From positions 68,386,001-68,450,000 of the forward strand of contig OX597831.1 in the NCBI GenBank assembly GCA_951406725.2: 64,000 nucleotides of DNA, read 5' to 3'. The notes under the pieces were generated by a model that saw only the letters and a program-made list of their open reading frames with translations, was not told the DNA's origin and made no database searches. This stretch comes from Octopus vulgaris. Taxonomy: Eukaryota. Within the stretch, counting starts at the first letter, position 1; the number at the start of each line of letters is the position of its first letter. Position numbers and translations under genes: made by a program. Below, piece by piece: positions 14,121-15,120 of the stretch.

Positions 14121-14135
14121 GTTACATATATATAT

Positions 14136-14301
14136 GTCTTCCCTTCTCTGGATCTTTCCTTCTCTTATGTTTCCGACGAAGAGCTCTGCGCGAAACATTA
14201 AACCCTCCTTCTTTCCTTCTTTCCTGAGCGTCCAATAATACTATATTTGTTCCACGTCCTCGCATTGTTGTGTTTTTTTGTGCTTTCTTGTTTGGATTAA
14301 C
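14136..14301 (+). mobile_element. Short (TA)n-embedded element with minimal hammerhead-like motif (PLE pLTR-derived)
   Basis: GTTT-CCGACGA-A-GAGC-tct-GCGC-GAAAC-ATT-AAAC at 14169-14203; TA repeats on both sides. Confidence 0.65.
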
Positions 14302-14314
14302 TATATATATATAC

Positions 14315-14480
14315 ATGAAAAAAGCAAAAGACGAAGACAGGTGGTGTACAAAACAAACAGATGTATTAGTATAACGCTCAGGAATAGAAAAAGTCTTTTA
14401 TGTTTCGAGCCTATGCTCTTCTACACAAAGGGACACAGAAAAAACAAGGAGAGAGAAAAAAAGGAAAGAAAAAAACATAA
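14315..14480 (-). mobile_element. Short (TA)n-embedded element with hammerhead-like motif (same family as 25222, 38080, 37455)
   Basis: Minus strand CTTT-GTGTAGA-A-GAGC-atag-GCTC-GAAAC-ATA-AAAG (14395-14430), then CCTGAGCGTTATACTAATACA..CACCACCTGTCTTCGTC shared with the other copies. Confidence 0.7.
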
Positions 14481-14511
14481 TATATATATATATATATTAT
14501 ATCGAAATATC

Positions 14512-14562
14512 ATGTTGATGAAGGAAATAAATCTTATGATTCTAATCCAGAAACGCGTCCAT
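14512..14562 (+). ncRNA. Type I hammerhead ribozyme-like motif
   Basis: ATG-TTGATGA-A-GGA..TCC-A-GAAA-CGCG-TC-CAT: core with C3>U, palindromic stem III, GUC cleavage triplet, short stem I ATG/CAT; lies in a ~250-bp island between TA tracts. Confidence 0.6.
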
Positions 14563-14741
14563 AATTAATCGAAAACTGTTTGATTTCATTATTTTTCTTC
14601 TTTTTTGCCATGTGTGTGTTACAAATATTGTTGTCTGTGTAGACATATTTTTGTAGAAAAAGGAAATAGTAGTCTTTTGGCTGCTATTTCTAAAATTTTC
14701 AGTATGTGGTCAAGCAACTTGTTGCTAAACCCTTATTGTTA

Positions 14742-14780
<39 letters not shown>

Positions 14781-14869
14781 CACCAGGTGGTGCTATTAAG
14801 TTAGACATGGCCTAGGCCAATAATGGCCGAAACCTATCAAAGTATCAAAGTATATGTAGGTAGATAGAT

Positions 14870-15120
14870 AAATAAATAAATGGAGTTAAACGCAGGTGTT
14901 ATTCGAATTATTTTACTTCTGACATATGTTTCCAGAAGGAATAAAATGACGTAAAACAATGTGCAATCTTCTCATCAGGGAAAGAAAGAAACCAAATACA
15001 TCAATATGACATTTTAACAAAATGTGATGACTGTGTATAATGATGAAGGGAACGCTATTAAGTTTTTTTTTTAAAAAACATTAGTAGATATAATGTCAAA
15101 GGTAGCATATAGAAAGAGAA
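14870..15120 (-). mobile_element. PLE pseudo-LTR with hammerhead motif, related to 62594-62850
   Basis: Minus strand CTGATGA-GAAG..CTTC-tg-GAAA-CATATG-TC (14915-14985); colinear with the 3' terminus of the PLE at 62.6 kb. Confidence 0.75.

Follow-up and report, generated by a model that had tools for sequence, protein, structure and literature searches.

The stack of short repeats at 14136-15320 of the window, which is the whole 64,000-nt stretch of Octopus vulgaris DNA analysed here, very probably consists of five separate decayed insertions, each the 3′ end of a repeat family next to a (TA)n tract. Protein-coding Penelope-like elements (PLEs) supplied three of these, a non-coding 566-nt unit another and a LINE the remaining one, and the insertions would likely be successive landings of families that each target TA repeats. 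The region around the stack is AT-rich and packed with microsatellites (Table 1). The initial annotation had described 14122..15120 as a pile of four different hammerhead-bearing retroelements, linked to PLEs and retrozymes and forming a probably uncatalogued, non-coding guild. The four islands (I1 to I4) are present with the type I hammerhead ribozyme (HHR) layout and with the TA tracts described around them; their membership in four different families and the link to PLEs and retrozymes are borne out. All islands lie at least partly inside the described extent, but I4 continues beyond it to about 15320.

Table 1. Features of the stack (window coordinates).
Feature	Position	Strand	Remarks
(TA)n tract 5′ of I1	14125..14135		follows closely on an apparent, decayed SINE 3′ end; basis, sequence
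I1, assigned as 5′-truncated pLTR/3′ end of a Neptune-type PLE	14136..14302	+	basis includes locus L269, with this subfamily on both sides of an RT match
I1 minimal type I HHR	14169..14203	+	C4 core, extra A after A9, no loop 3; core at 14173
(TA)n tract common to I1 and I2 3′ ends, tail to tail	14303..14314
I2, probable 5′-truncated 3′ end of a second Neptune-type PLE	14315..14478	-	last ~7-10 nt of family end missing
I2 minimal HHR	14395..14430	-	family has U at position 6 and free position 7; core at 14426
(TA)n tract between I2 and I3 5′ ends, head to head	14479..14499
I3, 3′ ~246 nt of 566-nt non-coding tandem unit (putative non-LTR retrozyme or non-autonomous PLE)	14500..14745	+
I3 type I HHR	14509..14565	+	6-bp stem I, U3.G8 core, unpaired 10.1/11.1, palindromic helix III, GUC site; core at 14515
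(TA)17 tract	14746..14779
I3b, 3′ tail of RT-encoding LINE	14780..14853	+	stem-loop 14815-14828, two 8-nt terminal repeats; not hammerhead
TA/TAGA/TAAA low-complexity spacer common to I3b and I4 3′ ends	14854..14883
I4, probable 3′ UTR/pLTR of Hydra-clade PLE	14870..15320	-	starts at about ORF stop codon
I4 type I HHR	14916..14983	-	family core canonical; core at 14978
(AC)n tract at I4 5′ junction	15322..15352

Searches for copies in the genome (2.8 Gb, 227 contigs) showed that every island is repetitive, with matches of 79-100% identity at 40 of 40 scored places, so the hammerhead layouts are not chance resemblances. Candidate pools contained at least 2555 (I1), 411 (I2), 2643 (I3), 2153 (I4) and 389 (I3b, at the GGCC motif) members, which are lower bounds and not copy numbers. 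In every family the 3′ end is fixed, usually then followed by TA, and 5′ ends are variable. Family copies of the islands have paired stems and a palindromic helix III. Each window copy is damaged, and none of the four is free of lesions when consensus core, 3-8 pair and stems I-III are checked: I1 has one mismatch in stem II and its helix III palindrome is broken, I2 has C3->G in addition to its family variants and a broken palindrome, I3 has one stem I mismatch, and I4 has lost 22 nt, among them the 3′ strand of stem II, besides one stem I mismatch. Such lesions are expected to reduce or abolish cleavage. Owing to the mutations in the window copies, a relaxed-core regular expression recovers I3 and I4 and misses I1 and I2, and an Rfam scan of 10000-20000 gave no hammerhead family among 75 matches at E<=10, mostly microsatellite-driven miRNA matches. 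Recurring 61-65-nt and 184-nt tandem repeat families also occur elsewhere in the window (5956-6148, 17207-17405, 20433-20752, 51119-51326; 27956-28326, 48131-48594).

The description as a non-coding guild holds for I3 and fails for three of the four islands, because longer copies of I1, I2 and I4 run upstream into RT/GIY-YIG ORFs. One long I1 copy led upstream to an RT thumb fragment with at least 150 genome matches, 18 of which were examined as 9.5-kb loci. I1-type direct repeats flank a single RT plus C-terminal GIY-YIG ORF in 11/18 loci having both flanks. The source family has a 1008-aa ORF, with Pfam matches to RVT_1 (E=0.002) and GIY-YIG (E=0.015) that are both below cut-off, and a CX2-5CxxC linker precedes its GIY-YIG. 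At L269 the window's own I1 subfamily lies on both sides of the RT match, which marks I1 as a probable Neptune-type pLTR; from ORF layout and linker we assign it to the pLTR end of a Neptune-type EN+ PLE. The family HHR combines a 4-bp stem I, C4, an extra A after A9, a 4-bp stem II and a 4-nt palindrome replacing helix III, and its bases are identical (32/32) between two Neptune subfamilies with flanks only 54% and 64% alike. The young 1008-aa family (L254-L271) carries a ~2.6-kb AC-rich 3′ UTR, which includes a GC-rich island and long His/Thr-rich open frames that are probably by-products of the repeat.

Longer copies of I2 extend into an AC- and pyrimidine-rich UTR. Searching with this UTR gave 30 loci, of which 28 contain I2 and 12 contain a same-strand RT/EN piece within 1.5 kb upstream; further longer copies running into a same-strand RT/EN ORF are found at L274 and L256. 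The I2 source is represented by ORF fragments, none with two pLTRs within the 1.5-kb flanks examined, and protein identity of 48-70% suggests that I2 is the 3′ end of a second Neptune-type PLE. Position 6 of the I2-type HHR is U in 40 of 40 sites, chosen by an otherwise intact motif, and position 7 is A in 30, U in 5, C in 3 and G in 2. The window contains three more I2-group Neptune ends (25206-25379, 37468-37579, 38086-38237). A second young Neptune-type family (L221:2345-4636 (-), L152-L180) has 753-764-aa frames and TA ends; its tail of ~45 nt is optional, and it carries an HHR-like motif whose core is U3-A8.

Short I1 and I2 copies could in principle be self-standing non-coding mini-elements of about 190-210 nt, spreading from their own short RNAs. 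I1 copies are 199-215 nt long in 23 of 29 cases, which is more uniform than random truncation predicts and counts against truncated PLE ends, under a query that disfavours copies shorter than 168 nt and does not disfavour longer ones. Moreover, many I2 copies start near one site, and locus L036 holds three of them about 194 nt apart. However, AC-rich UTR and ORFs lie upstream in longer members of these subfamilies (I1 at L269 and L007/L212; I2 in 12/30), and a fixed RT stop or transcription start within the pLTR would also yield equal lengths. Short copies carry one HHR each, nearly all single, and hence could not excise unit-length RNA alone. We consider mini-elements improbable and retain truncated PLE ends as the preferred reading of I1 and I2. 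The 5′ boundary of the 199-215-nt cluster (L002-L030) lies near a small hairpin.

I4 begins about at the stop codon of an upstream GIY-YIG-type frame, and in 25 of 30 loci the upstream EN-region protein continues on the same strand into I4. A young sister family has an intact 778-aa ORF, a pLTR tandem, an inverted 5′ copy, a tail and a TA end. This ORF gave no match in Pfam, and Atlas groups its protein with animal proteins, some of which carry GIY-YIG. It is a short single ORF with DKT, RW (with L rather than K as the next residue), a CxxC and a CxH around the EN end and no CCHH; the CxCX5C linker is absent before GIY-YIG both here and in the I4-linked frames. The 778-aa protein is homologous to Hydra-1_Obim but distinct, with an N-terminal half alignable by eye. 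The I4 source would thus be a Hydra-clade PLE, to be filed as a Hydra-like variant with the linker missing. In the family the HHR is canonical, with stem I covariation between two Hydra families, which are separated by one C-G/U-A swap. At 62594-64000 (-) the window contains a young Hydra-like PLE with about 96% protein identity to the intact 778-aa family, running past the window end.

For I3, a PLE ORF piece was absent in all 30 loci examined. In 29 other loci of the 566-nt unit, run-on into the next unit occurs in 7 (mostly ~120 nt) and inverted 5′ pieces in 9; run-on tandems and inverted 5′ pieces are marks of PLE insertion according to the text of Craig et al. (PMC8557442). Two loci, L089 and L323, have two HHRs in tandem. 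A sister family with a 577-nt unit, whose best copies are 94-100% alike, has the matching two-end pattern and a fully canonical HHR, and stem I is rewritten with 6/6 pairs in three I3-type families. Circular folds of the 566- and 577-nt units have z-scores of -7.6 and -5.9 against 25 approximate dinucleotide shuffles each. All 29 copies of the I3 HHR have U3, position 8 is A in 16 and G in 13, and 10.1/11.1 is unpaired. These features point to I3 as either a non-LTR retrozyme or a non-autonomous PLE, and the non-coding element likely borrows PLE machinery. An autonomous partner was not found, as blastn against three PLE families gave nothing significant; among the sister loci of the 577-nt family, 2 of 30 (one place) have a distant Hydra fragment. 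A candidate second HHR within the I3 unit (CUGAUGA ~65 nt upstream of the main core) was rejected, having poor stems and no motif at the homologous spot in sister locus L057. The young 577-nt family (L310-L339) shows more-than-unit-length, circularly permuted and head-to-head insertions, and is the best candidate for circle and cleavage testing.

The motif GGCC-aataat-GGCC-GAAAC, noted near 14816 as a further hammerhead half, is indeed present at 14815-14833, but it belongs to a LINE 3′ stem-loop and has no CUGANGA half. I3b extends upstream into a LINE in 10 of 29 loci, and the LINE ORF has an RVT_1 match with E=1.7e-31. Between subfamilies the stem-loop shows covariation, and two short repeats come after it; the variants compared have no CUGANGA strand, with GAAAC itself altered in L137. 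I3b is thus a LINE tail that also favours TA. The preceding RT ORF and an end made of a covarying stem-loop and short tandem repeats resemble CR1/L2-group LINE tails, a group to which I3b presumably belongs on features rather than phylogeny. A rearranged HHR or an HDV-like ribozyme was considered for the GGCC motif and rejected: there is no CUGANGA strand, and no partner was found for P2 or P1.1 of the HDV layout. Many short I3b copies (L133-L150 and the window copy at 14780) begin at one identical base after TA, suggesting a truncation hotspot or a tail-derived SINE.

Measurement of the flanks agrees with the proposed TA association. With window copies excluded, (TA)4 occurs near the 3′ end in 27/29 (I1), 23/29 (I2), 24/29 (I3), 13/29 (I4) and 27/29 (I3b) copies, compared with 4.4% of random windows in the window and 1.6% in two unselected stretches; the span tested is -12..+45 nt of the 3′ end (57 nt) and the background windows are shorter (45 nt). 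The low proportion for I4 counts against the TA-targeting reading. The 3′ ends of I1 and I3 coincide with TA-like bases that belong to the elements themselves, which hints at possible target-template pairing. Piling of elements into shared TA tracts is also in keeping with the data: the 3′ flanks of 144 focal loci contain 11 heterologous neighbours, 5 of them no more than 150 nt away from the focal end against 10% expected (p=0.003), a small sample of 11 events. The window holds further copies, three of the I2 group and one of the I4 group. Because the families are so abundant and their target is common to all, stacks are expected. Target duplications are hidden within TA, and the insertion order is therefore unreadable.

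It is exceedingly unlikely that the stack functions as one unit, with adjacent HHRs pairing as heterodimers or processing a host transcript. I1 and I3 do share one strand, I2 and I4 share the other, and helix III is palindromic in all family forms, which would suit such pairing. However, stem I strands and helix III lengths are unlike between same-strand pairs, all four window copies are damaged, and the arrangement is not repeated at any other locus examined. The stack itself likely has no function, and we return to successive insertion as its explanation.

How such insertions might arise can be outlined from the PLE literature. A GIY-YIG endonuclease would nick AT-rich DNA, RT would initiate within the RNA, some 50-190 nt downstream of the HHR, and copying back through the HHR would usually stop early and leave a short HHR-bearing end. 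Each insertion may keep or add TA, and would then provide a new target beside itself, allowing the pile to grow. I3 could be copied in trans by a PLE RT from tandem or circular RNA. In vitro, a lizard PLE showed AT-rich cleavage and internal RT initiation at two sites, which explains its tail; its HHR cut only with protein present, insertion was independent of HHR cleavage, and no target-template homology was reported (PMC11167929). A Naiad origin was considered and ruled out, since the endonucleases are C-terminal.

Most likely, selection acted on the HHRs in the source elements, where they would cut precursor RNA as dimers or with the help of protein; the 32/32 identical bases, the rewritten but paired stem I and the C-G/U-A swap were counted for this selection. 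The HHR shapes of the I2 and I3 families may instead be catalytically dead hitchhiking relics, or kept only as a protein-binding fold, a serious alternative although we lean against it. The invariant U at position 6 in the I2-type sites, and U3 with unpaired 10.1/11.1 in I3, would fit dead cores; A6C gives low activity in the text of PMC3088659, HHR mutants left in vitro insertion unaffected (PMC11167929), and 5′ junctions show no clear spike at the cut site. In a hand tally of I2 junctions at 41 distinct places, taken from the first 100 of 582 rows, 10 lie at +1..+3 of the predicted site, 23 at +4..+15 and 8 upstream, positions that are confounded by TA microhomology. For I4, 1 of 12 places is at about +1, and in the 577-nt sister pieces start at unit positions 106, 108 and 111 (cut at 108), among many other starts. 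Against relics, position 7 is free while the rest of the I2-type core is fixed, A8 in 16/29 I3 copies restores the 3-8 pair, and U4C and U3-A8 are known active variants in the same text (PMC3088659). The relic reading bears on catalysis alone and is compatible with the main explanation of the stack by separate insertions.

A more far-reaching proposal, which we put forward tentatively and think probably wrong in its full form, combines three parts: the 566-577-nt I3-type units would be circular RNAs copied by PLE RT from two internal TA-target-like start sites, the deviant I2 and I3 cores would be working protein- or dimer-assisted HHRs, and Hydra-like TA targeting would proceed without the Cys linker. 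If true, the deviant cores would widen the accepted catalytic consensus of hammerheads, and Hydra-like TA targeting would need no Cys linker.

The locus itself is ordinary repeat debris, which illustrates the heaping of TA-seeking retroelements of unrelated kinds. Our results also caution that a short repeat bearing an HHR will often be a PLE stub rather than a new ribozyme element. As by-products, they provide natural HHR core variants in abundance, together with young intact families of Neptune, Hydra-like and non-coding type within a single genome. These would permit direct testing of the purpose of PLE hammerheads and of which RT moves animal retrozymes.

As a kind, these elements are not uncatalogued. 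In the text of Cervera and De la Pena 2014 (PMC4209133), minimal type I HHRs in metazoan PLE pLTRs are mostly solo motifs of truncated PLEs, and as here they have a short helix I, an extra base between 9 and 10.1, no or a palindromic loop 3, the U3-A8 variant and many families per genome. The family-fixed U6 of I2 and the unpaired 10.1/11.1 of I3 were not found in that text. Natural variants U4C, A6C and U3-A8 are given in the text of PMC3088659, and U at position 6 was not found in the literature searched, which is a weak absence as figures and supplements of PMC4209133 and PMC3088659 may hold it. An annotation of octopus repeats gives 31 Penelope-like families with recent activity, and its main text is silent on hammerheads (PMC13282606). 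The present HHR families were not found in the portions of the literature compared.

According to the text of Craig et al. 2021 (PMC8557442), the Hydra clade has (TA)n insertion and universal HHRs, and includes the octopus family Hydra-1_Obim. The I4 family shares with this clade, as described there, a single ORF under 3 kb, DKT, RW, C-terminal CxxC and CxH, no CCHH, a canonical HHR and (TA)n insertion. However, I4 and Hydra-1_Obim are different families with different HHRs, and the I4 side is without the CxCX5C linker that the same text ties to TA targeting. With the Neptune PLEs of that text, the I1 source shares RT, the CX2-5CxxC linker, a C-terminal GIY-YIG with CCHH-type residues, partial pLTR tandems and a microsatellite bias, and the I2 source is placed with them by protein identity. 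The young I1-source family differs from them in its long AC-rich 3′ UTR, and the likeness is one of features, not of an RT tree.

Non-LTR retrozymes and their proposed PLE origin are treated in the texts of Cervera and de la Pena 2020 (PMC7229834) and Li et al. 2026 (bioRxiv 10.64898/2026.07.22.740005); 'octopus' is absent from both main texts. Like the metazoan elements described there, I3 is non-coding and low in GC, with tandem units that contain one type I HHR each and a strongly self-paired circle. I3-type units of 566-577 nt are longer than the 170-400 nt given in PMC7229834 and fall within the 51-972 bp of the bioRxiv text. I3 arrays differ from those described for non-LTR retrozymes: their tandems are short and partial, and they have PLE tails as well as inverted 5′ pieces.

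Published work already covers minimal HHRs left in solo, truncated ends of PLEs, the targeting of (TA)n and a Hydra family from octopus. To these known systems our comparison of sequences adds, modestly, family-wide core variants: U at position 6 in I2, and U3 with G8 or A8 in I3.
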